Shown here piece by piece: positions 3,202-17,400 of a stretch of DNA of 23,451 nucleotides (within the stretch, counting starts at the first letter, position 1; each line of letters begins with the position of its first letter). The stretch is from NCBI GenBank assembly GCA_027031765.1, contig JALVPN010000212.1:1-23451 (forward strand). The letters are read 5' to 3'. Source of the stretch: Promethearchaeota archaeon (GTDB taxonomy: Archaea; Asgardarchaeota; Thorarchaeia; Thorarchaeales; Thorarchaeaceae). The position numbers were made by a program, and so were the translations under genes. The notes below the pieces were generated by a model. The model saw nothing but the letters and a program-made list of their open reading frames with translations. It searched no databases and was not told the DNA's origin.

Positions 3202-3512
3202 GACTGGATAGTCGGACAGACCATTCACGTACACACGTATGTTACCTCCCCCTTTGTGAGTACTTTGCCTAGGACTCGTTTCAGGGAGCATGCTGGAGGT
3301 CTGAGATTCGGTTCATCTGTACTGACGCTGTCCGTACTGACAATACGCCTGGGCAGAACCAGACACATTGTACAATGCCATACAGAGCGCAGGTATAGGA
3401 GTTCCACATGTGTCTGTGTCGAGTGACCCATTAGGGCGGGATGCTCCTGCTGTGCTAGCCATGAGTCCGGCTCATGCGCCACTTGTTCCAGTACCACCTA
3501 CGGTCTGATATC

Positions 3513-6500
3513 TCAGCTTGGCATAGCAAAACGGAGCACCTCAATGATCCTCCTGACTGCATGGTCCGCAATGTCATGGTCTGCGCAGCGCGGGTTCGAA
3601 GCACATTCTGCTAGTTTCTTGCACATGTCCATAACCAGGTCGGTAGCCTTCTTCCTTATGGCACTGTACCGCTCTGCGACTAGGACTATGTGCCAGCAGA
3701 GGATGAATCTCGCCATGATGGTATATCTGTCGGGTTCCCTGGCATGCTTGAGCTCGTCACAGATATTTCGAATGATTGTCTGCGCAGTCTTTTCCAGGTG
3801 CTTTGTCATGCTCTCCGACGAGAGATAGCTGTCGATTACCCCGACTATAGCATCCAACATGGTTGCGAATTTCGGCATACCAATCCGCGACCTGACATTG
3901 AGGACTCTTGTGAGGTTTTCAGCTGCCCCGTCGATTTGCTTCGACAGTCGTGCCTCGCGGAACTGATCCGCAAGATACGCAGCGTTCAGGAGCGCTATCA
4001 CCAGCATCGGCTCAGGGCCATATCCACTGGGCAACCACTCCACCCCCTCTCTGAGGAGCTGCGACATGTACCGCTCCTTCAACCAGTCGAGGTGCGTACG
4101 GATACTCTCCGGATTCTCAAGGGCCTCCTGCACAAAGTGGCTGACATGATGCAGAATGTCCATGCGGATGTGGGGCTTGGCACTTGAGAGGGCTATCACG
4201 CCCTCCCAGACTTCGTCCAAGGGAATGAAGAACCCGTTCAGATGGAGACGCAGGAGCGACAGTCTGAACTCGACGGAGGGGGTGCTTAGTCCCGTGCCAT
4301 GTACATCGCCCGTCGCCATTCTTTCAGCATCTACGTACGTATCTACTATGTTCGCAATGATTTCGTTGATTAGTTCAACTGGGCCCCTCCTGCTAGCGGT
4401 ACGACGCTGCTGGGTCAGTTCCCTCATGAGGTCAAGTGCAAGACCATGTTGGTCTGACACAAGCATTGCGAAGGCCAGGGCACGGCTCGTTTCCCTAGCC
4501 ACACTCTTGCTACGACCCAGGGCACGGCTCGTTTCCCCAGCCACACTCTTGCTACGGCGAGCGCCAGATGCAACAAGTCCCAGCAGCCTAGACTTCAGTT
4601 CCTGCGCAAAGATTCCGGCACGTATTCTTGTTTCTGGTGTGGGTGAGGGCACAACGGCCATGAGGACTGTTCCTAGGCGGTGCAGCTCCTCCTTCGTCAT
4701 CTTATCTGTCCTCTGTGGGTCGAGACTATGGATGATGCTCGTCCCAAACGCTAACGCAAGCCTCCTGAAGCGTCCATTTCCTGTACTTGCTGTCCACCTC
4801 TCTAGCAGTCCGAGTTTTGCTCTGTCTGGTAGCTGTTGGTGAATCTGACTCTCCAGTCTCTCTTGTTCATCGGGCCCGGGCCGTTTCATGAGAAACCGGA
4901 TGATTCTCTCAGCATCATCAATATCTTCGGCCTGACTCAGCATCCGGAGAAGAAGTCCTTTCTGCTTCCACAAGGCATCCCCAATTGTTCCGTACATCTC
5001 AGTATCCGAGTGCTCGGCAAGCTTGGCTATGAGCCGGGTGCGCCTCTCCTTCACGGCCTTTTCGGTCAGGCGGATTACAACTCGTCCCACCACCCGTGAC
5101 CACAGTCTACCCGAGATACTCGGGTCTTCTATGAAGTCCACTACCTTTTCGTTGCAGGTGTCCATGACTAGTCCCGCAAGCCCGTCGACAACAGCTTCCT
5201 CAGTGTCGTGTACCTCCCCCACATTGTGGCGCTCAACTACGAACCTGACAAACCTGCGTGCCCCGTCGCACTCGGTAGTCCCACGGGGTAGCTGCCCTTT
5301 GCGCAAAGTTTCGGCAATGGCAGTGTACACTTCGCGAGAGAACTTCTTGTTCTCCGGAAGCTTGGTCACCACGTCTCGGTACCCGAAGTCTTCACCGATG
5401 CGCTGGACGACAGTTGCCCTGATGATTGCCTCGACAAGCGGTACCAGCCCGGGTCTTCGCCCCTTCTGTTGAGGTGCTCTGAGCATGTCTGCAACCCAAT
5501 CCGCAAGATGACCCAGCAGCTCGGCGTCGTCGCTACATGCTTTGACAAATGCCCCCACGTACTTGCCAGCCCGCGCCAATTCCAAGCGCTTCTCACCGGC
5601 AAGTGCGTCGGCAACTTGAATGGCGCGCGCAAAGGCATCGACACCGGCCTTCTCCTGTGCATGTCGTACAAGAACCTCCAGCACACGTTCAACCAGCTCC
5701 GGGTGCTCTCTGACGGTGTCCTCCCTCTCCAGCACCTTCGTGAGGGATTTGGGCGGTAGGTTCTCCAGTGCACGGCCAATCATGTCCAATAGAATCCTAT
5801 GGAGCTCGTTTTCCAGTCGCGTCTGCCTGGTTCTTGGTAAGGCTCCGAGGATACTGTCAATGTATTTGTGCGGACAGGCTTCCTGACCAAGTGCTCTTTC
5901 CATATTCCGAAGTACTGCCTCCACGCCCGGTAGGGCTCCAGTACTATTCAATGCCTCCGCATGTGAAAGGAGGTACTTGCAGAGTCGTAGTATCTCATCT
6001 GTGCCAACGCTCTTTCCTATCCGGACAGAAACGAACGTGTCCAACACGGCCCGGTCGAGTGCGCTGAACTCACTTGGTATGGCTTGCAGCGCCTCTTGAT
6101 ACTCCCTGACCGTTACGTGCTTCCACAAGTCGAGTAGAGTACTGAATAGGGCCTCCGTTTCATCTTTTGCCTGAAACTTCCCCCTGACACGTTGTCCATC
6201 GATGTTGAACGCATAGAATCCTTGGCCAAAAAGTGTGCTCTCTGCGCTGCGATGTGGGAATACAAGGCATGTGTGCGCATCCCGCCTACCTCGTGTGACG
6301 AGCTCGTCCACTTCGATGTCCCTGCGCAGTGACGGCGGGATGAACATGAGCGCAGTGATCATCATGAACCGCGGTGGGACTTCGTTGCGACTCACAAGCA
6401 TGACCTTGTGCCCTTCAAGGAGCGCTTCAATCAGTGGCCTGATTTCTTGCACTATATTCTTATCAAGCCGGTCGAGCGGCCGGTCTGGCTCCCCGATACT

Positions 6501-7007
6501 ACCCTCCTGAATGATGTTGCATATCTCGTAGTAGAGGTTGTCAAGTTCCCCTTCGTCTATCTCCTCCAATCCTGTTTTCTTCGGTACCTTTCTAGGACTG
6601 ATTGGCGGGCGTTCTTCCCTGAGCAGATGCGGCAGCAGGAGGTGTGGCAGTCCGTGCAACCTCTGGTAGTCCCCTGGACTGAGGACAAGACAGGCCAACA
6701 TGGAGACCAGTCGGCCAGCCGTGTCCTTACCGGCGTGTTTCACAAGGGATACAATACGTTGTTCCTGCTGCTCTCCGTAAGTCCTAGTTCTCAGCACCCC
6801 GTCCGAGTAGCACAGTGAGTCGACAACAGACTTGCCACGACTCCCAATCCTAGGATCCCCGCCCAGAGGGATTCTGTCAGCTTGGATGTTCAGGCTCTGA
6901 TACACTGCTCTGGCATATTCTACTCTGAGGTTGTTGCTATACTCGTACACGTCATACCCGACGTCGGCAGCTTTCATCCATCCGCCTACTATCCGACCCA
7001 CCCTCAT
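3513..7007 (-). CDS. Large (1164 aa) protein: N-terminal GAP1-N2/GAP1-M-like (DENN-like) module plus a long alpha-helical solenoid
   Basis: Long ORF. N-terminal GYDVYEYSNNL and AGKDTAGRLVSMLACLVL resemble GAP1-N2 (G-f/y-x-v-x-x-S-x-x-l; G-x-D-x-x-GR). LIEALLEGHKVMLVS...ITALMFIPPSLRR resembles GAP1-M/cDENN. The remainder is Leu/Glu/Arg/Ala-rich amphipathic helices with no TM segment. Start could be 7007 or 6977. Confidence 0.85.
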   Translation of the reverse strand: MRVGRIVGGWMKAADVGYDVYEYSNNLRVEYARAVYQSLNIQADRIPLGGDPRIGSRGKSVVDSLCYSDGVLRTRTYGEQQEQRIVSLVKHAGKDTAGRLVSMLACLVLSPGDYQRLHGLPHLLLPHLLREERPPISPRKVPKKTGLEEIDEGELDNLYYEICNIIQEGSIGEPDRPLDRLDKNIVQEIRPLIEALLEGHKVMLVSRNEVPPRFMMITALMFIPPSLRRDIEVDELVTRGRRDAHTCLVFPHRSAESTLFGQGFYAFNIDGQRVRGKFQAKDETEALFSTLLDLWKHVTVREYQEALQAIPSEFSALDRAVLDTFVSVRIGKSVGTDEILRLCKYLLSHAEALNSTGALPGVEAVLRNMERALGQEACPHKYIDSILGALPRTRQTRLENELHRILLDMIGRALENLPPKSLTKVLEREDTVREHPELVERVLEVLVRHAQEKAGVDAFARAIQVADALAGEKRLELARAGKYVGAFVKACSDDAELLGHLADWVADMLRAPQQKGRRPGLVPLVEAIIRATVVQRIGEDFGYRDVVTKLPENKKFSREVYTAIAETLRKGQLPRGTTECDGARRFVRFVVERHNVGEVHDTEEAVVDGLAGLVMDTCNEKVVDFIEDPSISGRLWSRVVGRVVIRLTEKAVKERRTRLIAKLAEHSDTEMYGTIGDALWKQKGLLLRMLSQAEDIDDAERIIRFLMKRPGPDEQERLESQIHQQLPDRAKLGLLERWTASTGNGRFRRLALAFGTSIIHSLDPQRTDKMTKEELHRLGTVLMAVVPSPTPETRIRAGIFAQELKSRLLGLVASGARRSKSVAGETSRALGRSKSVARETSRALAFAMLVSDQHGLALDLMRELTQQRRTASRRGPVELINEIIANIVDTYVDAERMATGDVHGTGLSTPSVEFRLSLLRLHLNGFFIPLDEVWEGVIALSSAKPHIRMDILHHVSHFVQEALENPESIRTHLDWLKERYMSQLLREGVEWLPSGYGPEPMLVIALLNAAYLADQFREARLSKQIDGAAENLTRVLNVRSRIGMPKFATMLDAIVGVIDSYLSSESMTKHLEKTAQTIIRNICDELKHAREPDRYTIMARFILCWHIVLVAERYSAIRKKATDLVMDMCKKLAECASNPRCADHDIADHAVRRIIEVLRFAMPS
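4475..4556. repeat. 42-bp in-frame tandem duplication with one mismatch, encoding RSKSVAGETSRALG / RSKSVARETSRAL
   Basis: CCAGGGCACGGCTCGTTTCCC(T/C)AGCCACACTCTTGCTACG starts at 4475 and again at 4517. Confidence 0.95.
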
Positions 7008-7068
7008 CGTCTACCAACCCGGTGTGGTTCATTGATGCTTGGGTCTCACCTCACTCCTCCATTGAGTT

Positions 7069-8181
7069 CTAGCGCCGCATCAGCTCGACAATCTTCATTA
7101 TCGGAACCAAGAGTCTGTGCGGTCTCAAGACGATGACCTCCTTTCCGTCCTCGTTCTCTTCCGTCTTGGGTTGGTCTGGTGTCCCCCATGCTGAGTAGGC
7201 GGCCACATGGGTCTCATTGTTGTGCCAACTACTGAACAGGTTCCGTATCTGCTGTGCTGACGCCTTCATATGTCTATTGAACCACTGAGCAACGTCGATG
7301 TCCACATTCCCACTCCCCTTCTTTTGAGACCCTTGAGACTTATCCTTTTGAGGCCCTTGACACTTATCCTTTTGAGACCCCTGCGACTCATCCAACCCCA
7401 ACCACTTCTCAGCATGGGAGAAGGCGACTATGAGGGGTTGGTCGAGTTGGACACGTACGCGCCGCCATCCCCTCATTTGTATTCGATGTTCTGCGACATG
7501 TTTTGCAACGATGAACAGTAGAGCGTCAGCAATCTTGTCGCGCATCTCGATCACGGACTCGGACTCCTCGCACTGTCGGATGTCCTCGCACTGTCGGATG
7601 TCGAGGAGGAGAATGTACCCGTCGTACTTCTCATTCAATATGCTCTGCAGTCCTTTCCTCTGCTCCTCCTCGATGATGCTCAAGTTCTTTTCTACCTCTT
7701 TGAGGAAGGTGTTGAAGACTTTGAGGCGTCTGGGGTGTACCTTGGTACCGGCGATTATTGATTGGGCAAGATGCAGTCTCTCAGTGCTGCTCTCGTTCTC
7801 AATGGCCTCAAGTGCCGCACGGAACACCTTCGTGTAGGTCTCGCCGGCTGTATCGACCAACTTGATACAGAACCTGACCTCATCACGAGTGCCTTCGTCC
7901 AAGACAAACCACATTGATATAGGCACGGTCTCGACCGTTGCAGCGGCCCCGGTATTACCCGCCAATAGTTCTCTCTGGACTGCCCGCAGGTGTTCTCTCG
8001 CATACATGTTCATGGGTGCAGCCTGCACCAGCCGGCCCAGTATTTGCGTTGTGCTCTCGTCCGGCTTGACTTGGTCGTGCTCCCCTTGCGTTAGGAGGTC
8101 GAGCATTGCCAGGAACACTGTCTTTCCTGCCGTTGGTGGGCCAATCAAGCATATGTTGAATGTCCTCCCTTCTGCCGCCAA
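7069..8181 (-). CDS. TRAFAC-class P-loop GTPase, DO-GTPase-like (paralog B, ~370 aa)
   Basis: G1 GPPTAGKT (8119-8142), G2-like AAATVET, G3 LVDTAGE, strand DGYILLLD, G4 position IVAFSHAE, G5-like YSAWG, C-terminal LRPHRLLVPI. TTG 8181 is preferred over the ORF-track GTG 8229 because GGGTGA lies 7 nt upstream of it and the TATA-like box sits immediately upstream of 8229. Confidence 0.85.
   Translation of the reverse strand: MAAEGRTFNICLIGPPTAGKTVFLAMLDLLTQGEHDQVKPDESTTQILGRLVQAAPMNMYAREHLRAVQRELLAGNTGAAATVETVPISMWFVLDEGTRDEVRFCIKLVDTAGETYTKVFRAALEAIENESSTERLHLAQSIIAGTKVHPRRLKVFNTFLKEVEKNLSIIEEEQRKGLQSILNEKYDGYILLLDIRQCEDIRQCEESESVIEMRDKIADALLFIVAKHVAEHRIQMRGWRRVRVQLDQPLIVAFSHAEKWLGLDESQGSQKDKCQGPQKDKSQGSQKKGSGNVDIDVAQWFNRHMKASAQQIRNLFSSWHNNETHVAAYSAWGTPDQPKTEENEDGKEVIVLRPHRLLVPIMKIVELMRR
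7321..7392. repeat. Three imperfect 24-bp tandem units encoding DESQGSQK/DKCQGPQK/DKSQGSQK
   Basis: CTTTTGAGACCCTTGAGACTTATC, CTTTTGAGGCCCTTGACACTTATC and CTTTTGAGACCCCTGCGACTCATC at 7321, 7345 and 7369. Confidence 0.9.
7565..7600. repeat. Exact 18-bp in-frame tandem duplication encoding DIRQCE-DIRQCE
   Basis: TCCTCGCACTGTCGGATG at 7565-7582 and 7583-7600. Confidence 0.95.
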
Positions 8182-8232
8182 CTGACGTTCACCCGCTACC
8201 TGATATTCCTTGTTCTGTGCTTGGTACACGGG

Positions 8233-8247
8233 CTTATACTCTTTTTG
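8233..8247 (-). promoter_or_regulatory. Archaeal BRE plus TATA-like promoter for GTPase B and the downstream large protein
   Basis: Minus strand reads CAAAAAGAGTATAAG (A-rich BRE followed by a TATA-like box), about 50 nt upstream of TTG 8181, with a GGGTGA RBS in between. Confidence 0.6.
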
Positions 8248-8421
8248 TGCATGTTTCGGCCACAGGTACTAAGTGTGGATGAGTGGGAGATGGCTGATAC
8301 CATTGGGCACCGGGCCCGATTGCAGGCACACAAAGGCACAGAGCTCTTCCAAGGAGGGCCTGACATCGCCTCTCTGTAGCCCACGTGCTACCTGGGGCTT
8401 GGACGGACAGCCCTGCTGGAC

Positions 8422-9399
8422 TCAGACCCGGATGCATGCTAGGGTCATCAAGAGTCGGTAGAGGAGCAGGAGGACTCTTTCTGGCCTTATGGTCCTCGTG
8501 TTACGTGTCGTCCTGAGTCCATAGGCCGAGTACGGCACCACGGGCCTCTGTTTCTTCTTCCACTGGCTGAAGACCTTGGCGAGCACTGAACTGGCGTCCG
8601 GGTGTTCGCTACAGAACCAGTCCCACGCCACTCTGTCCCGGTCTGTCCGGGTGTTGCTGAGCCACTCCTCCGCGTGAGAGACTGCAACAATGATGGGTGC
8701 GGTCACCTTGAGGCGTTGGGAGACCGCACTGAGTCGTGCTCTCCTACCATAGATTTCCACTGCTGCAACTAGCCTTGCCATGTTGATGGTCGCTTCGTAT
8801 ACGTAGTCGCTGCCCTTCGTCCCGTCGAGGACCAGCATGTACGCATCTTGGGGCGTTTCGAAAGGAGTACTGCCACCACGTGATGGGCCCTCCTCGGGCG
8901 GCGCAGGGTCGGTCACTAGGGGCCCAACGTGGTCGCGGAACGGTGCCAGTTTCTTCCTGTCCACTCCCTTTCCTTCTACTACCGCCTCGATGACATCTGA
9001 TACGTCCCTATTTGTATCTGCCAGGGTGTCCAGAGAGTGTACCCGCCCCTCAAACGCGAGACCGGAAATGTCAGAAAGAGAGAGCCCCATGGCCATGGAC
9101 GTGTTGCCTCTCTTCGAGTCCAGCGAGTACCACATCCGATATGTTGTCCACCCATGCGACCGGGGCACTCTACGTCGTTTCTTGTTCAGGACTATGTCCT
9201 GTACCTTTCTCAAGTTGCTACGGGCGGCAGCAGGCAAGCATGAAGTGCAGGTAAGTCTTCTTCTCAGGTCTTGGCACTCCTCGCCAACCTCGACGTCCGG
9301 ATGACCAGATGTCAGGAGCTCCCAGAGCGCAAGTAGAACGGTCTTCCCACCCCCCTTGGGACCAAGGAGCATCACCCCCGGTGTCCGTTCGTCCGACAT
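8422..9399 (-). CDS. TRAFAC-class P-loop GTPase, DO-GTPase-like (paralog A, 325 aa)
   Basis: G1 GPKGGGKT, G3 LSDISG, strand DAYMLVLD, G4 position IIVAVSHAE, G5-like YSAYG, C-terminal IRPERVL. RBS AAGAGGAGAT lies directly before ATG 9399. It aligns by eye with paralog B along its full length. Confidence 0.85.
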   Translation of the reverse strand: MSDERTPGVMLLGPKGGGKTVLLALWELLTSGHPDVEVGEECQDLRRRLTCTSCLPAAARSNLRKVQDIVLNKKRRRVPRSHGWTTYRMWYSLDSKRGNTSMAMGLSLSDISGLAFEGRVHSLDTLADTNRDVSDVIEAVVEGKGVDRKKLAPFRDHVGPLVTDPAPPEEGPSRGGSTPFETPQDAYMLVLDGTKGSDYVYEATINMARLVAAVEIYGRRARLSAVSQRLKVTAPIIVAVSHAEEWLSNTRTDRDRVAWDWFCSEHPDASSVLAKVFSQWKKKQRPVVPYSAYGLRTTRNTRTIRPERVLLLLYRLLMTLACIRV

Positions 9400-9705
9400 A
9401 TCTCCTCTTACCTACCTGTGCCTACATGACGGTGCAGCAAGGGCCCTCTCTCCTTTCAAGGTTTGTGGGTATCGAGTGTGCTGGCACCCACGTCCGGATG
9501 CTCGCCATTGTCCTGATGACAGCGACAACACCAAGATATTGCCGGGACAGGTAGCCCCTTGAGGGTTCACCGGCAGCTGACTGGAACCGTATGAGAGTTG
9601 TGTTTCTACGCGGACTATCGCAGAGGATATCGGCAGGTGCTGTGGACTGTACGCCGTCCTTGGTGCTGGAGACGAGTCGGTGACTGCCCCAAGTCCTCTG
9701 TACCG

Positions 9706-9723
9706 ACAAAATGAATAAATTAG
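9706..9723 (+). promoter_or_regulatory. AT-rich candidate BRE/TATA element in the divergent intergenic region
   Basis: CAAAATGAATAAATTTAG is the only strongly AT-rich tract between 9399 and 9753 and lies about 30 nt upstream of the 9753 ORF. Confidence 0.5.
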
Positions 9724-9752: not shown

Positions 9753-12089
9753 GTGAAGGGCAGCATGTTGGGGTTGATCCGCGGGAAGCCTATGGTTCTC
9801 TTGCTGGTGGTCGGTCTATTGCTACTTGCAGGGTACCAGCCGGCGCTTTCCTTGCAGAAGTGCACTCGTGCCAGTACTGAGACCGCAGGCCCTGTCGACG
9901 GGTCTGGCGTGGAGGTCTCGGATCTCGATGCCGTCATCTCCTGCTCACCAGCACTTGCTGACCTCGATGGTGATGGTGTGACTGATATTGTCATCGGCTC
10001 CGACTCCGGAGTTGTGCGTGCATACTCTCCCATCTTCCACGGATCCCTCTGGCAATATGCGACAGATGGCCCGGTTGCATCGTCGCCATGTGTGTACGAC
10101 GTTGACAACGACACTAGACTTGAGGTGATAGTTGGCACCTGGGACGCACGAGTATGCGCCGTTGATGCAGGGAGTGGGACGGCCGAGTGGGTACATGATG
10201 CCACCTCTCAGGTGGTCGCCTCGCCCTGCATTGCAGATGTGGACGGCGACGGACTGGTCGACGTTGTGGTGGCATCGTGGGACGGTACAGTGACGGTACT
10301 GCGTGGGCAGGATGGGAGCGTAGCCCTGGAGAAATCGCTGGGGTCCTACGTCGTATCGTCACCGTCAGTCGCCGACTTCAGTGCTGATGGTCATCAGGAC
10401 ATTGTCGTGGCACTTGGCAATGGTACAGTCATTGCTCTGGACGGAGCTGATGGGCAAGAGCTGTGGCGGTACGAATGTCGTGGTACCGTGTGGTCTTCAC
10501 CAGCACTTGCTGATGTCAACAACGACACGGTTCCTGACATCTTCGTGGGGTCGCGAGACGGTCACTTCTACGCACTGGATGGGCCTACTGGCAGCCCCAT
10601 GTGGATTATCCCGACTCGCGGCGGTGTTGTTGCATCCCCTGCCCTGTGTGACATCGACGGCGACGGTCGTCTAGATGCAGTGTTCGGTACTCTCGATGGT
10701 CGCGAGTACGCTGTTGACTGCAGCACAGGCAATGTTGTCTGGTGTTTCCACGCCACCGGGCCAATATGGGCCTCTCCAGCAGTCGCGGACATTGACTCGG
10801 ATGGCAACCTCGATGTGGTCTTCCCGTCAGAGCGTGGCTGCTTCTACGTACTGGACGGACGCTTCGGCTTCCCTCTCGTCCAGGAGTCGCTTGGGGCTTC
10901 GGTTTCGAGTTCGCCTGTCCTGTCCGACATTGATGGTGACTCCAGGCTTGATGCTGTCGTTGGTACATGGGGTCGGGACGTCGTGCTCGTCAGAGGTATT
11001 ACCGCTGGCCAGTCGCGCCTCTATTGGCAGGGCCTATGTGGTCTTGACGGCTTCAGGAGGACGCGCTCCACCGCAGTCCATGACCCCGACGGCGACATGT
11101 TGTCATCGGTGTCGGAGAGTTTCTTGGGTACTGACCCTCAACGGCCAGACACCGACGGTGATGGGATGCCTGACGGATGGGAGGTCGCTAACGGTCTGGA
11201 CCCGTGCGTACCAGATGCAGGCGGTGACCGCGATGGCGATGGCCTATTGAATATTGAAGAGTTCACACTCGGTACGTACGCCTGCGTAGTGGACTCTGAC
11301 CTTGATGGTCTCGACGACCGTTCAGAGCTGGCACGCGGCACCTCACCACGACTCAACGACTCGGATGCAGACGGGCTGAGCGACGGTGAGGAGATTGGAC
11401 TCGGCCTAAATCCGCTGGCAGCCGACTCGGATGGCGATGCCCTCGACGACTACTGGGAAGTGGTCACCGGTTGCTCTCCGACAGTGCCAGATGCCTCCGA
11501 GGACCCAGATGGTGACGGCCTGGACAACGGTGGTGAGTACCTGCATGGCACTCTGCCAAATGTATCCGATACCGACGGTGATGCTCTGGATGACGGTACA
11601 GAGGTCGAGTTGGGTCTTGACCCGTTGAGTCCCGACAGCGATGGCGATGGTATGCCTGACGGGTGGGAACGCCTGATGTCCCTTGACCCACTCGTCCCTG
11701 ATGCTGCGGACGATAGGGACAACGACACTCTGACGAACATTGAGGAGTACCTTCTTGGTACCAGCCCCGTGAGTTGCGACACGGACCATGACGGCTGTCC
11801 TGATGGCTGGGAGGTATACTACTCGTTCAATCCACTTGTGAACGACAGTTTCATCGACGCTGACCAGGACGGGCTATCGAACCTCCGTGAGTTCGTGCTG
11901 GGTCTTGACCCCACCAACCCCGACACTGATGGCGACCACGTGATAGATGGCGGCGACATGTTTCCGCTCGTACAAGACCAGCTGGTAGTAGGCTACAGCT
12001 TGACAGCACTGGTACTGATGGTTGCGGTACTTGTCGCAGTGCGCCTACTTCCAGTAGTCCGCCGCCTCTATATACGGTGGAAATACTAG
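9753..12089 (+). CDS. Cell-surface protein: signal peptide, 8-blade FG-GAP/PQQ-like beta-propeller, 13 thrombospondin type-3-like Ca-binding repeats, C-terminal TM anchor
   Basis: Eight ~46-aa repeats of type xxSSPxxADxDGDGxxDxVxGxxDGxxYAxDGxxGxxxW, then 13 DxDxDG(L/M)xD/NxxE units, a TM helix (LTALVLMVAVLVAV) and a basic tail RRLYIRWKY. Start could be 9753, 9765 or 9792. Confidence 0.9.
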   Translation: MKGSMLGLIRGKPMVLLLVVGLLLLAGYQPALSLQKCTRASTETAGPVDGSGVEVSDLDAVISCSPALADLDGDGVTDIVIGSDSGVVRAYSPIFHGSLWQYATDGPVASSPCVYDVDNDTRLEVIVGTWDARVCAVDAGSGTAEWVHDATSQVVASPCIADVDGDGLVDVVVASWDGTVTVLRGQDGSVALEKSLGSYVVSSPSVADFSADGHQDIVVALGNGTVIALDGADGQELWRYECRGTVWSSPALADVNNDTVPDIFVGSRDGHFYALDGPTGSPMWIIPTRGGVVASPALCDIDGDGRLDAVFGTLDGREYAVDCSTGNVVWCFHATGPIWASPAVADIDSDGNLDVVFPSERGCFYVLDGRFGFPLVQESLGASVSSSPVLSDIDGDSRLDAVVGTWGRDVVLVRGITAGQSRLYWQGLCGLDGFRRTRSTAVHDPDGDMLSSVSESFLGTDPQRPDTDGDGMPDGWEVANGLDPCVPDAGGDRDGDGLLNIEEFTLGTYACVVDSDLDGLDDRSELARGTSPRLNDSDADGLSDGEEIGLGLNPLAADSDGDALDDYWEVVTGCSPTVPDASEDPDGDGLDNGGEYLHGTLPNVSDTDGDALDDGTEVELGLDPLSPDSDGDGMPDGWERLMSLDPLVPDAADDRDNDTLTNIEEYLLGTSPVSCDTDHDGCPDGWEVYYSFNPLVNDSFIDADQDGLSNLREFVLGLDPTNPDTDGDHVIDGGDMFPLVQDQLVVGYSLTALVLMVAVLVAVRLLPVVRRLYIRWKY

Positions 12090-12191: not shown

Positions 12192-14021
12192 CTATGCACC
12201 ATACATCTTGTCAAGGATGGCATCAATCTCATCGACTTTCGCAGGTATTCGGAACCGTTCTGCCACTGCCCTGGCCTGGAGCAGGACTGCTAGGAGTCTT
12301 TCAAAACGTTTCCAGTCATCACCTGACATTGTGCTTGTTTCTACGCTCGCCAGCCAGTCTCTTGCAGTCTGGACAATCCACTCTACCACCAGTTCTGCAT
12401 CACTCCTGTCCCGGACTTCTGAGACCCGTACGTCCAGGAACTCTCCATCCCGTAGGGCCTTCGCCAACTGCACCCTTCTCTCTGCCTGCTCTATGAGTTG
12501 ACATGCCTGTTCCGTCACCTCAGCCATCTCAGGCTGTACTGTCCTCGGTGGTGAGCAGTCCACACCAAGCCGTGTTAGCAGCTTCTGGATCCTTGCTACC
12601 GCATCCATGACCCTCTGACAGTATGTGTCTAGAGTCATATACCCACCACCCGTCCCGTCCAGTGCACGACGGAGGTCGACGATGCTGACCTGCAGCTCCT
12701 TAGCAGTTTCCCTTCTTTCCTCCAGAATCCCTTCAATATTGGCAAACTCGGCCCTGGTCTCATCGAAGACTCTCTTGAGCCTATCGACAAGCTCCTCTTG
12801 TCCAAGTGCCGCCGCTTGCGCCATTGATGAGGTGAGTCCAACTAGAGCGCGTTTCTCTTCAACATGGAGATTGTCAATGAACCTAGCAATGGTCTTGGCA
12901 TCAACCATGCCTACGCACTGAGTGCGGAGTCGTGCGACCGTTTCCTTTGCCATCGTCATCGCTTGGTCTGCTTCAGTCATGTTTCTATGCACCGCTAGAT
13001 GTCTGCGCACATCTCGGGACAGGCGCTCTACTTCGTCAGCGAGTCTCTGGACCTCTTCCTTTCCCTCTTCGATTCCGTACTCTTTCGCTGCCCGATGTGC
13101 CTTCTTGAGCAGCGCTCTAAACTCCGGCATGCTTTTCTGGATCTCTCTGTCTAGGGCCTCTAGTCCCATGATACTACTGACTAGCTGGAAGCGCACTTGG
13201 AGTTGCTGCAACCGGATCCGTACCGGCCGGACGAAGTCGCTTTCGAACGCTTCCAGTACTCGCCTTCTTAGCACCGCCTGTTGCTCCCGGGCCACTTGGA
13301 TGCTCGCTCTGGCCTCCTCCAGTTCTTGGGACGACGCTGCATCCGCTCCGGCTGCTTCACGCGTTCTCTCTAGCGCGAGTTCTGCTCTCTCTCTCAGTCT
13401 GCGAATCTCATTCAGTCGGCTCAGGAGGGTGGTCAGACCTTGCCGTCCCCGTTCTCTTTCGACCCGCCGCACGGCCTTTTCCAGCTCCACGACTTCCTTC
13501 TTCAGCTCAGACTGGCGCTCCTTCAAATCCACCATCTGTAGGAGTTCCTCGCGCGTCCGCCTGTGTAGTGTGACCGCTCGATTCGCCTTCGTTTCCAACA
13601 TTGCTAGGTGCGCACGCTTCGCCTCTTGCAGGGCCTGCGTGTCGAGTGCTATCGTACGTTCCATCTCCTGCCTGACGGTCCTGCGGAGCTCCTCGAACCG
13701 CTTATTGGCCTGAGAAACTGTTTCTTTGAGCTGCTTCACAATGCTCTCGGCCAAGTACAGGTACCGCTCTGTCGTTGTTATCGCGAGGTGCCGTTCCAAG
13801 TCGGCCTTTATGTCTGCATACCCTACCTCGGGCAGCTGTTTCAGCGTTCCCTCGTAGCGTGTGAGATCCCTGAGCGCAGCAGTTAGCACCGAGACTGCCC
13901 CATCATAGTCCCGACATCCCCGCAACTCCTCGGCCCTCCTCTGCTGTTCTTGGGTTCTCCGTAGGACTTGAAGCGCCTTCTCGGTTCTACTGTCATCTTG
14001 CTGCTCGTGATGCACTGTCAA
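12192..14021 (-). CDS. Long soluble coiled-coil / all-helical protein of unknown function (~609 aa)
   Basis: E/R/A/L/K/Q-rich heptad-like sequence throughout. The first ~100 aa of the ORF-track version (start 14327) look non-coding in composition. TTG 14021 is preceded by GAAGGGTG, so it is the preferred start, but this is uncertain. Confidence 0.8.
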   Translation of the reverse strand: MTVHHEQQDDSRTEKALQVLRRTQEQQRRAEELRGCRDYDGAVSVLTAALRDLTRYEGTLKQLPEVGYADIKADLERHLAITTTERYLYLAESIVKQLKETVSQANKRFEELRRTVRQEMERTIALDTQALQEAKRAHLAMLETKANRAVTLHRRTREELLQMVDLKERQSELKKEVVELEKAVRRVERERGRQGLTTLLSRLNEIRRLRERAELALERTREAAGADAASSQELEEARASIQVAREQQAVLRRRVLEAFESDFVRPVRIRLQQLQVRFQLVSSIMGLEALDREIQKSMPEFRALLKKAHRAAKEYGIEEGKEEVQRLADEVERLSRDVRRHLAVHRNMTEADQAMTMAKETVARLRTQCVGMVDAKTIARFIDNLHVEEKRALVGLTSSMAQAAALGQEELVDRLKRVFDETRAEFANIEGILEERRETAKELQVSIVDLRRALDGTGGGYMTLDTYCQRVMDAVARIQKLLTRLGVDCSPPRTVQPEMAEVTEQACQLIEQAERRVQLAKALRDGEFLDVRVSEVRDRSDAELVVEWIVQTARDWLASVETSTMSGDDWKRFERLLAVLLQARAVAERFRIPAKVDEIDAILDKMYGA

Positions 14022-14453
14022 GAGTCTTGGCACCCTTCCGTCTAGTCTGCTACCCCCGCGCACTACTCTGCAGGCGTCCGTGTTTCCTTGGAACAAACAC
14101 AGAAAAAACTGTTGGCGTCTAGCTGGCAGTACCAGGAGCTGCGTACTGTGTTCCAGCGTGTTTGAAGCTGAATACCCGTGGCCACCGGTAGGCCGCTCAG
14201 TCAGTGCACGGGCGGACTTGTCCCCCGAACTAGTCATACCGTGCTCGCTCCGGTCTGGCCCGATACGCACCCTTCTGGCAGGGAACATGAATCCTCTGCC
14301 TGTTGCGTCAGGCCATAGGAATGTCACGCACCGCGTCGTTGATGACCCGTTGCGCCCGGCTCTAACACCATACCTGCCGCTACGCTGTGGAAATGTTTTT
14401 CACTCCCTTTACGGTGCACTTCGCCCGCGAAAATGGGAACAGATGGTGACCGG

Positions 14454-17400
14454 ATGCACGCAAGTATCAAGTCCTCCGCTCTGATTCTCATGGTTATCAT
14501 GTTGACTGCCGGTGCCCTCCCCCTTCATCCTCTCGTGAGGCCAAGGCACCCGCAGGCCTACAGCCCAGTTATCAGTAGCAGCCCCCCTGAGCAAGACTTG
14601 CAGGAAGTGCTTGAGCACCTCCGTTCTGGGGGGCAGTCACTCCCGTTCGGTGGGTTCATCCGCAACCTCGGACAACTTGACGATGAGCGTGTGGAATACT
14701 ATGTACCCGGCCGGGTCATGGACGTAGGCTTTGGCCCGTCGATGGTACTGTACGCGTTCCACCGCCCGGACGGCGGTCGTACAGTGTTCCGCATGACGTT
14801 CCCGGGGTCTGACACAGTGCACCCCACTGGACGGGTCAGGAACCAGCATGTCGTCAACTATTTCCATGGCGACCTCGTACTGACCAACGTACCCACCTAC
14901 AACGAGGTGTGGTTCGAGGGCCTCTATCCTGGCATCGACCTCAGGTTCATGATGACCGGGGGCGGTCTCAAGTACGAGGCCATTGCGCGTCCCCATTCAG
15001 ACCCCTCGGTGTTCCGCATCCAGCTGTCGGGCGATGTCGACGTCGAAGTGTCGGACGTGGGCGTGTCGGTGAGCCTGCCTGGAGTCTCGGGCGGGCCTGT
15101 CTTCACCGACAGCGGTCTTGACGTGTTCCAGACAGGCGGTGCCAGTGTCCCTGCTGAGTACACCCTTATAGACCCGCTCACACACACCTACGGGTTTGCT
15201 TTGGGGGAGTACGACCCCTCGAAGACGCTGATCATTGACCCGTGGTGCGTATCTCATGCCACCCTTCTCGGTGGCAGCGGTGGTGAGTGGGCATATGATA
15301 TTGATGTCGACTCGAGCGGGCACGTGTATGTCACGGGGTACTCCGGTTCTGTAGACTTCGACGTCACGCAGGACGCATATCAGGCATCCCATGGTGGTGC
15401 CCATGACATCTTTGTGACAGAGTTGAACCAGACAATGACTGGACTGGTCTACAGTACGTACATCGGTGGCTCGGGTGATGATGAGGGGCGGTCGCTGTTC
15501 GTGGACAGCTCCGGCAACGTATACATCGGTGGCTATACTGCCAGCAGTGACTTTCCACTGGTGAATGCCTACGACCCGAGTCTGGACGTGCGGGACGCAG
15601 TCGTTGTGAAGCTCGACTCAAGTGGACAGCTAGTGTTCTCCACTTACTTCGGTGGCAGTGGGGAAGAGGTCATCACTGGCATTGTACCCTCAGGCACCAA
15701 CTACATCTACGTTGTTGGGTACACGACCTCCGACGACCTCAACGTCACCAGTGCGTACCAGGACACCTTTGGGGGTGGCTCCTACGACGCGTTTGCTGCC
15801 GAGTTCGACACGAGTTCGGCCAGTCTTGTCTACAGCACGTATCTCGGGGGTTCGGATGATGACTTGGCCTATGATGCAGTCCTCATCGGGCAGGATGTTG
15901 TGCTCGTCGGACATACGTGGAGCTCCGACTACCCAGCAGCGAACGGCTACGACACCTCCATCAATGGTCAGACTGACATCTTCGTCACCCGGCTGAACTC
16001 CACCGGCAACGGCATAGTGTTCAGTACTTTTCTCGGCGGCGGCTCCTACGACTACGGTCAGAGCATCGCACTCGACTCGAGTAACAACATCTATGTTGCT
16101 GGTCGGTCAATGTCGTCGAACTTCCCCACAGTGTCCGCCTATCAGGACTCCCTTGCTGGAGAATACGATGTCGTGGTGAGCGAGCTCTCTGCAAACGGTC
16201 AGACCCTCTTGGCAAGCACTTATCTCGGTGGCACCGACACTGAGTGGTCGGGTGTCGTCACAGTCGACCCCACTGGACACGTGTGCGTTGCAGCCAAGAC
16301 CGCATCCACTGACTACCCCCTCCTCAATGCCAGCGACAGTTCCCGAACTGGCGCGACCGACGCGGTGCTCACCCTTTTCGACTCTGGACTCAGCACTCTC
16401 CGGTTCTCCACCTACTTCGGTGGGAGCCACACGGAAGAAACGCTTGGGATTGACACTGACAGTTCTGGGGCCGTCTACTTCTGCGGGACATCCACCTCCC
16501 TCAGTTTTCCAGCACACCGCGCATATCAGCCGGGTCTCAGCGGTACGAGCGATGCGTACATTGTGAAGTACGATGTTGATGTAACGCCGCCGACCATTGG
16601 GCTGGTCGGTACGTCGAACAACACGGTCCACAGGTCAGGCACTCTGATCCGGCTCGACCCTGATGATGACATGTCGGGCGTGCAGTCGGTGACGTACAGC
16701 TGGGACGGTGGTGCCAATAACTCTCTGAGCGCACCGTACAAGGTCGCACTCCCGTCCGGCGAGACCACCCACGTCTTGCGTGTGTATGTGAGCGACCGGG
16801 TCGGCTTCGAGTCCAGCGCCGTCTATTCCTTCGTGACAGACGACACAGCCCCTGTCATAGACTTGGTAACGCCGACCAATCACACAAGTGCCTGCTCGGG
16901 CACCCTTGTTGATGTGGACATCACGGAGCCCCACATCGGCTCGGTCACATACACGTGGGGTGACAGCAGTCCTCAGGCCTGGAGTGCGCCCTATCACACG
17001 GTAATCCCCCACGAGAACGGGTGGGTCACTCTGACTGTGAACGCAACGGACCAGGCCGGTAACAATGCCGTCGCTACCTACGTGTTCAAGGCCTCTGCAT
17101 CTAGGTACCTGCACTACTCCACGTACTTCGGCGGGACAGATGTGGACATGGCTGAGGACCTCGCCGTTTCAACCAATGGCGTCATGTACATTGTCGGTAG
17201 CACTGCCGGCTCTCTCCCGACCTTCAATGCATATGACTCCAGTTTCAACGGCCTGCCCACGGACGCGTTCCTGGCCGCATTTGCAGGAAACGGCTCCCTG
17301 CTCTTCTCGACCTACATTGGTGGTGATGACGAGGACCATGCGTACTCCGTTGCCCTCGACAGCGACGGTACAATTGTGGTGGCCGGACTCACTGCCAGCT

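Follow-up and report, generated by a model that had tools for sequence, protein, structure and literature searches.

Organization of the gene cluster

The window, the whole 23,451-nt stretch of DNA analysed here, comes from a Promethearchaeota archaeon of the Thorarchaeaceae (contig JALVPN010000212.1). Only one sequencing run contains this stretch: a metagenome from a hydrothermal vent, which is probably its source sample. Between positions 3513 and 9399 the window carries a cluster of three co-oriented genes, which encode two paralogous P-loop GTPases (GTPase B and GTPase A) and a 1164-residue protein, P0001. The cluster is very probably a highly divergent Asgard representative of the DO-GTPase/GAP1-N2 'GTPase-centric' systems. 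Its features, in the order of transcription, and the adjoining gene are listed below.

8422-9399, minus strand: GTPase B (P0003), 325 aa, a divergent DO-type TRAFAC GTPase
8230-8421, minus strand: 192-bp spacer between the genes of GTPases B and A; it contains a TATA-like, A/T-rich element (agtataag, 8241-8234) shortly before the start of GTPase A
7069-8229, minus strand: GTPase A (P0002), 386 aa from a GTG at 8229
7565-7602, minus strand: tandem duplication in GTPase A, 18 bp x 2.1, perfect, in frame, DIRQCEDIRQCE
7321-7393, minus strand: tandem repeat in GTPase A, 24 bp x 3, 85% match, in frame, QKDKCQGPQKDKSQGSQKK
3513-7007, minus strand: large protein P0001, 1164 aa
6558-7007, minus strand: P0001 residues 1-150, GAP1-N2-type domain with the motif HAGKDTAGR; predicted longin/roadblock-like fold
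6108-6557, minus strand: P0001 residues 151-300, GAP1-M-type alpha/beta domain with the motif LEGHKVMLVSRNEVPPRFMMITALMFIPPSLR
3513-6107, minus strand: P0001 residues 301-1164, orphan region with no recognized domain
4475-4556, minus strand: tandem duplication in the helical region of P0001, 42 bp x 2, 97% match, in frame, RRSKSVAGETSRAL / GRSKSVARETSRAL
9753-12089, plus strand: FG-GAP/TSP3 membrane-anchored extracellular protein, divergent from the cluster; candidate associated component

An earlier note on this DNA, made from the letters alone, described three co-oriented genes at this position. All three open reading frames (ORFs) are found on the minus strand at the coordinates above, and every motif quoted there (IIAGTKVHPRRLKVF/VVEGKGVDRKKLAPF, YDGYILLLD/QDAYMLVLD, SHAE, YSAWG/YSAYG and LRPHRL/IRPERV) occurs in the translations. 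The ORFs are real genes and not products of chance, because homologues with an identical gene order occur elsewhere. The P0001 gene begins 61 bp past the stop codon of GTPase A, on the same strand. An alternative start of GTPase A, a TTG at 8181, would give a protein of about 370 aa and resembles the starts of its homologues. Read from the TATA-like element of the spacer, GTPase A and the large gene may have a promoter of their own. No transmembrane (TM) or hydrophobic segment was detected in any of the three cluster proteins.

The 42-bp duplication in P0001 is recent. On sequence evidence, the tandem duplications of 42 bp x 2, 24 bp x 3 and 18 bp x 2 are all recent changes that left the reading frame intact. 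In GTPase A, the 24-bp repeat has built a low-complexity insert (residues 283-304), which is modelled with a predicted local distance difference test score (pLDDT) below 50. Two further minus-strand ORFs flank the cluster, of 90 aa (3225-3497) and 95 aa (9422-9709). Their composition is odd, they lack a TM segment and match no family, and they are not counted as genes.

Two paralogous GTPases with a TRAFAC core

GTPases A and B align over about 340 columns with 24% identity (BLASTP E 7e-20), which bears out the paralogy proposed in the earlier note. Both contain the P-loop GxxxxGK[ST] and the Walker B DxxG by which the TRAFAC fold is recognized. In GTPase A, the P-loop reads GPPTAGKT and Walker B reads LVDTAGE, with the glutamate characteristic of the family kept; SHAE and YSAWG follow. 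In GTPase B, the corresponding motifs are GPKGGGKT, LSDISGL (DxxG with no glutamate after it), SHAE at G4 and the G5-like YSAYG. The Walker-B glutamate (DxxGE) is thus present in A (DTAGE) and absent from B (DISGL), and one of the two paralogues in a second Asgard genome, G199, has DFGGD. At G4, both window proteins have SHAE and the subfamily as a whole SK[AS]E, while canonical Asgard DO-GTPases keep [ST]KxD. Neither protein has CxxC pairs N-terminal of the P-loop, as a zinc ribbon would require, nor a hydrophobic segment.

The pair arose by local duplication. In our tree, A and B are sisters (96/92 support), the longer branch being that of B, and G199 likewise has a sister pair of GTPases. 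The topology suggests that the double-GTPase state arose by local duplication at least twice among the Asgard loci compared, with the caveat for A and B that both are atypical in amino-acid composition, which could favour their grouping in the tree.

The AlphaFold2 model of GTPase A is confident, with a pLDDT of 79.6 and a predicted template-modelling score (pTM) of 0.83. Its fold matches are TRAFAC GTPases only: YcjX is the best (E 4.4e-6), followed by EF-Tu, MglA, septin, G-alpha and SR-beta. The model thus indicates that GTPase A is a TRAFAC GTPase with helical insertions. YcjX is known to partner the membrane protein YcjF, not a GAP1 protein. This stress-induced GTPase (PDB 6nz4-6nz6) is the best solved-structure match (E 4.4e-6, probability 1.0) and has in common with GTPase A a TRAFAC core with large helical insertions, but the identity is 12% and the TM-score just 0.31-0.36. 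A sequence search of the PDB with the GTPase profile gave matches at the level of the P-loop only.

Link to the DO-GTPase family

The relevant Pfam models are PF19975 and PF19993 (DO-GTPase, gathering cut-off 27 bits), PF20013 (GAP1-N2, cut-off 24 bits), PF20014 (GAP1-M) and PF20052 (GAP1-C). Direct comparison of GTPase A with these models gives sub-threshold scores of 15.3 bits for DO-GTPase2 and 12.3 bits for DO-GTPase1; GTPase B and P0001 have no relevant Pfam match, and the NCBIfam models match none of the proteins. The link to the family runs through relatives. One member of the same subfamily, P0007, scores 31.3 bits against DO-GTPase1, above the cut-off. Profile-profile alignment (hhalign) of the window-subfamily GTPases (alignment A6) with Pfam-confirmed Asgard DO-GTPases (A7) gives a probability of 98.8% and E 1e-16 over 262 columns. 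In a language-model feature atlas, the neighbours of GTPase A are DO-GTPase clusters (0.94).

One of the feature clusters nearest to GTPase A has 839 members, of which 12-16% carry a DO-GTPase1/2 annotation and 45% are viral (Uroviricota). Tailed phages may therefore also carry DO-GTPase-like proteins.

A GAP1-N2/GAP1-M head on a large protein

Profile comparisons establish that the first 300 residues of P0001 are homologous to GAP1-N2 followed by GAP1-M. Aligned by hhalign, the window-type heads (A5) match GAP1-N2/M proteins (A4) with 97.5% probability and E 6.5e-12 over 185 columns that span both the N2 and M domains, including an AGKDxxGR motif and an 'EGxxVxxV...LLP..R' motif. GAP1-M behind GAP1-N is supported by the course of the alignments, which run via residues 190-236 of P0001 onto the Pfam GAP1-M stretch of a protein encoded elsewhere in the same genome, on contig C118, and by atlas neighbours that carry GAP1-M. 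Residues 86-370 also align to the 836-aa GAP1-like protein of a metagenome locus, L008 (E 2e-7). This protein scores 23.9 bits against GAP1-N2, next to the cut-off of 24, and its counterpart in locus L027 (genome G115) reaches 27.8 bits. Two approaches that do not use alignment agree. In the feature atlas, residues 1-300 lie beside GAP1-N2/GAP1-M clusters (0.95), and in a shape search the head is closest to ESM-Atlas clusters of GAP1-N1, N2 and M (TM-score up to 0.66 as tabulated, 209 residues).

The predicted structure suggests, with modest confidence, that the first head domain (GAP1-N2) is longin-like. The earlier note had spoken of a GAP1/DENN-like helical protein. The longin-like model of the first domain bears out this putative DENN likeness in part only.

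Within residues 301-1164, the sole stretch folded was 301-420, which is all-helical (helical prediction 283-415). For the region as a whole, Pfam, NCBIfam and PADLOC gave nothing and the feature atlas no usable match. For GAP1-C, no Pfam match was found in P0001 at E up to 1, and none in the atlas for residues 301-1164. A word-indexed search of 5.8 billion proteins with GTPase A, P0001 and the eight-row head alignment returned only P0001's own record.

A rare subfamily with a conserved gene order

An exhaustive hmmsearch of 1.84 billion representative sequences with a profile of A and B returned three proteins: GTPase B itself, P0006 (E 4e-13) and P0007 (E 2e-4). Members of this subfamily are thus scarce in public data. 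Of the 400 genomes searched with the GTPase profile in the phylum of the window, just two, G072 and G115, yielded full-length relatives (E 1.8e-32 and 5.8e-30); both belong to a family other than that of the window. Within its own family (85 genomes) there are six matches, all confined to the P-loop region, and no full-length relative. Only 7 of the 301 phylum genomes searched gave a GAP1-N2 match, and apart from the window genome none of these belongs to the window's family. P0006 sits on three metagenome contigs (L008, L009 and L010) and, read from a TTG start, is a full GTPase of 344 aa. Pattern scans of genome and metagenome contigs with alignment A2 yielded nothing new, returning only the L009 contig again.

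The order of a GTPase gene followed by a gene for a GAP1-like protein is kept in seven related loci, L008, L027, L028, L029, L030, L031 and the C118 locus of the window genome, so that the linkage noted in the window recurs in distant loci. In L008, the P0006 GTPase is followed by the 836-aa GAP1-like protein and then by a 984-aa FG-GAP and Big_7 protein with a C-terminal TM anchor. G072 and G115 have a small membrane protein, a GTPase and a GAP1-like protein of about 830 aa, in that order. In L027 (G115, contig C107), the gene of a 710-aa nSTAND3-type NTPase (35.7 bits; 4115-6247) follows with a 4-bp overlap with the stop codon of the GAP1-like gene, so that in this lineage the third component would appear to be a STAND NTPase.

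The layout varies among the other loci. L029 (G199, contig C110, 3901-12303, minus strand), in a genome of 29% GC, encodes two sister GTPases of 289 and 264 aa, a 1108-aa GAP1-N2 protein and a 1107-aa protein that belongs to no family. L030 and L031 (genomes G085 and G090) represent a compact form, with a 230-aa GTPase, a stand-alone GAP1-N2/M protein of 330 aa and a 474-aa protein without a known family; an ABC_ATPase (PF09818) gene lies near L030. In L028 (G072, contig C178, 4588-7662, minus strand), the genes of the small membrane protein, GTPase and GAP1-like protein are immediately preceded by HerA and NurA genes in the same orientation. This arrangement was seen in one locus only, and we did not adopt HerA-NurA as part of the system.

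Further DO-GTPase loci in the same genome

Family searches located two more DO-GTPase loci in the window genome (G000), on contigs C118 and C60. The C118 locus (L020, 4289-12908, minus strand) encodes a 341-aa DO-GTPase (DO-GTPase1, 46 bits) and two larger proteins. One, of 1552 aa, carries GAP1-N2 and GAP1-M; the other, of 980 aa, is cytoplasmic and combines a propeller and a coiled coil with a zinc ribbon at its C-terminus. The genes of the locus are joined by 4-bp ATGA overlaps and so are translationally coupled, and a subtilase gene adjoins. On C60 (L054, 15908-16657, plus strand), a DO-GTPase matches the canonical Asgard profile with E 7e-30; the end of the contig cuts off its downstream partner.

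The C118 locus matches the window in its gene order, in which a DO-GTPase precedes a giant protein with a GAP1-N2/M head and a further large protein comes next. In contrast to the window proteins, those of C118 reach or approach the Pfam thresholds (DO-GTPase1 46 bits, GAP1-N2 23.3-27.9 bits, GAP1-M 21.6 bits), and there is a single GTPase with an intact TKAD motif. The two loci show no BLASTP similarity outside the P-loop region, and their GTPases fall in separate clades of the tree.

Comparison with known systems

DO-GTPase/GAP1 systems form a large, computationally predicted class of NTP-driven switches, defined by Kaur, Burroughs, Iyer and Aravind (2020, eLife; PMC7159879). In its members, paralogous DO-GTPases carrying a Walker-B glutamate are encoded ahead of a GAP1 protein built from N, M and C domains, and additional components vary. 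Kaur et al. predicted that these function as NTP-dependent conflict systems, which are present in bacteria and 'a few archaea' (PMC7159879). They were described mainly from actinobacteria, firmicutes, planctomycetes and chloroflexi, with several paralogous systems in some genomes (PMC7159879). The open literature that we searched contained no experimental work on DO-GTPase/GAP1 systems.

The window shares with these systems two paralogous TRAFAC GTPases, one with the Walker-B glutamate, and the product headed by GAP1-N2 and GAP1-M directly downstream. Also common to both are variable parts, C-terminal of GAP1 and in neighbouring genes, the multiplicity of paralogous systems and a patchy spread. 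Unlike the systems of Kaur et al., the window has proteins that fall under the Pfam thresholds, SHAE in place of [ST]KxD, an orphan C-terminal region of 860 aa, no tubulin, HSP70 or kinase theme, and an Asgard host.

The assignment to this class is supported by the agreement of four lines of evidence: subfamily members that pass Pfam, the profile-profile matches, the language-model features and the predicted shape. It upholds the suggestion of the earlier note that this is an archaeal, probably Asgard, version of a DO-GTPase and GAP1-N2/M system; for the window proteins themselves, the links of the GTPases to DO-GTPases and of the head to GAP1-N2/M show up only with sensitive methods, that is, profile-profile comparison, language-model features and predicted shape. 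The same note had called the system a candidate undescribed one. This goes too far, because the class was already described with a few archaeal cases included (PMC7159879). Its representatives in Asgard archaea form a branch that standard models miss because of its great divergence.

Longin/roadblock platforms and longin-DENN regulators (MglB, Ragulator, GATOR1 Nprl2/3, FLCN-FNIP, C9orf72-SMCR8 and DENND1) also count among the closest known systems. TagF is a regulator of a proteobacterial secretion system and, to our knowledge, is not known to partner a GTPase. This accessory regulator of the type VI secretion system (PDB 9t0n) is the best two-domain match of the head model, with 12% identity and a root-mean-square deviation of 5.9 Å.

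A proposed GTP-driven switch

The most likely function of the cluster is that of a GTP-driven switch. GTPases A and B would form an asymmetric heterodimer, in which A, with its DTAGE motif and glutamate, would be the catalytic partner and B, with DISGL, a regulatory or slow one. That one GTPase copy can lose the catalytic residue fits an asymmetric dimer. Longin and roadblock domains dock on other small GTPases, and the longin-like GAP1-N2/M head may dock on the GTPase pair in a comparable way. The head would then couple the nucleotide state of the pair to the lineage-specific helical region of 860 residues, which might serve as a sensor, a scaffold or a recruiter of an output not recognizable in the locus. 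A complex prediction of A, B and head residues 1-300 scored 0.00 and gave no verdict, speaking neither for nor against binding.

The biological role, following Kaur et al. 2020 (PMC7159879), would be that of a conflict switch directed against viruses or mobile elements. In favour of a conflict role are the patchy distribution, the presence of several paralogous systems in one genome, partners that vary and in some cases are of the STAND type, and parts that evolve fast. Between the antiviral switch and the trafficking module put forward in the earlier note, defence is plausible by analogy with the described class; that the system acts in defence at all is nevertheless a close call that we place slightly on the doubtful side. 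The explanation as a whole we regard as probable, with its class much better secured than its role.

Several observations weigh against this explanation. P0001, GTPase A and GTPase B all lie under every Pfam gathering score. P0001 by itself matches the GAP1 profile only with E 9e-4 and 23% probability, so that its membership depends on intermediates and on methods other than alignment. The head model (residues 1-420, eight-row alignment) has a mean pLDDT of 56 and a pTM of 0.51, which makes the longin reading tentative. With SHAE rather than [ST]KxD at G4, the guanine specificity of A and B is uncertain. Of the hallmarks of GAP1-N2-type systems, N-terminal zinc ribbons, TM segments, an FNIII-repeat partner and GAP1-C were not found. 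PADLOC gave no match to the cluster and no effector domain was recognized in it; the statement of the earlier note that the cluster has no recognizable nuclease, TIR or other effector is borne out in that neither Pfam nor PADLOC recognizes one. Finally, the literature searched holds no experiment in which any DO-GTPase system defends against viruses, and the defensive role is one that we infer at two removes.

Alternative explanations

The nucleotide specificity of the P-loop proteins may have changed, making them ATPases or non-hydrolysing nucleotide sensors, which would be compatible with either biological role. Judged from the motifs, we consider this somewhat unlikely. The guanine-specifying [NT]KxD is replaced by SHAE where canonical Asgard DO-GTPases retain [ST]KxD; the subfamily has SK[AS]E, and the window paralogues have lost the lysine too. 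GTPase B also lacks the Walker-B glutamate. Yet the fold, the P-loop, DxxG and the G5-like YSA[WY]G are kept in both proteins, and a glutamate could in principle stand in for the aspartate in the contact with the base.

The main alternative is that the cluster is a cellular module outside defence, which would regulate a process at the envelope or membrane. Eukaryotic longin/DENN complexes control small GTPases, and in such a module the longin-like, possibly DENN- or TagF-like head would be a GTPase-activating protein (GAP) or guanine nucleotide exchange factor (GEF) for A and B. The solenoid would be a membrane or envelope scaffold, perhaps with the FG-GAP surface protein. The longin-like model of the first head domain and its best two-domain match, TagF, would suit this role, as would the lack of a recognized effector and the TM-anchored extracellular FG-GAP protein that adjoins the cluster both here and in L008. 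Several findings nonetheless make it unlikely. A housekeeping module should be conserved, yet full-length relatives occur in none of the 85 genomes of the family and in only two of 400 in the phylum, and the C-terminal 860 residues of the large protein are an orphan. The coupled third gene in L027 encodes a STAND NTPase, typical of conflict systems. The FG-GAP link itself comes down to two loci, and the FG-GAP-like neighbour in C118 is cytoplasmic and sub-threshold.

That the cluster is a decaying remnant of a formerly working system is very improbable: the loss of the family-typical catalytic residue from GTPase B, the low-complexity tandem insertions in GTPase A and the 192-bp gap separating the GTPase genes might be read as decay, but the three ORFs (5.6 kb in total) are intact, with no stop or frameshift, every tandem duplication is in frame, and A and B, at 24% identity, still keep about 20 motif positions that are invariant across the subfamily, which implies purifying selection.

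Implications of a longin-like head

With the cluster read as a DO-GTPase/GAP1-N2 switch, a broader kinship can be considered. The GAP1-N2 plus GAP1-M head, which also occurs in bacteria, might be a prokaryotic longin-plus-alpha/beta module, kin of TagF and of the eukaryotic longin-DENN regulators, that serves as the GAP or GEF platform of the linked GTPase pair. We consider such a kinship distinctly unlikely. If it were true, an Asgard genome with three such systems would set the origin of longin-DENN regulators in a prokaryotic context, and two GTPases with a 300-residue head would be a tractable model of platforms that read a GTPase dimer. If the GAP1-N2 head is truly longin-like, this would explain how GAP1 reads its GTPase and would tie the systems to eukaryotic GTPase regulators of debated origin. 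The three soluble proteins are in any case a compact set for biochemistry.

Neighbouring genes

The divergent gene at 9753-12089 encodes a protein with FG-GAP_3 (Pfam E 4e-22) and TSP3_bac domains, an N-terminal signal or TM segment and a C-terminal TM segment; the window genome has only about 19 FG-GAP genes. On the basis of two loci, the window and L008, this membrane protein is a possible associated component. The case for it as a constant fourth component is weakened by C118, where the neighbour is cytoplasmic and below the cut-off, and by L027, which has a STAND NTPase in that place.

Beyond the FG-GAP gene and back on the strand of the cluster lies a gene for a 711-aa Glu/Arg/Leu-rich, coiled-coil-like protein without a Pfam family (12192-14327, minus strand), which has no shown link to the cluster. 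It is followed by the gene of a 1690-aa surface protein (14433-19505, plus strand), which combines DUF7948 and Ig-like domains with numerous SBBP beta-propeller repeats, has a long poly-Thr linker and is anchored by a TM segment at its C-terminus. No FN3 domain was matched in any window protein; the neighbours of the cluster are the FG-GAP/TSP3 protein and this SBBP/Big protein. A radical SAM protein of 361 aa is encoded at 21045-22130 (minus strand), 12 kb from the cluster. A radical SAM gene also lies upstream in L008, but the two are not orthologous (E 0.18), and we rejected radical SAM as a shared context. The last gene (22366-23451, minus strand), which runs off the end of the window, encodes a DNA-methylase-like protein with a weak N6_N4_Mtase match.

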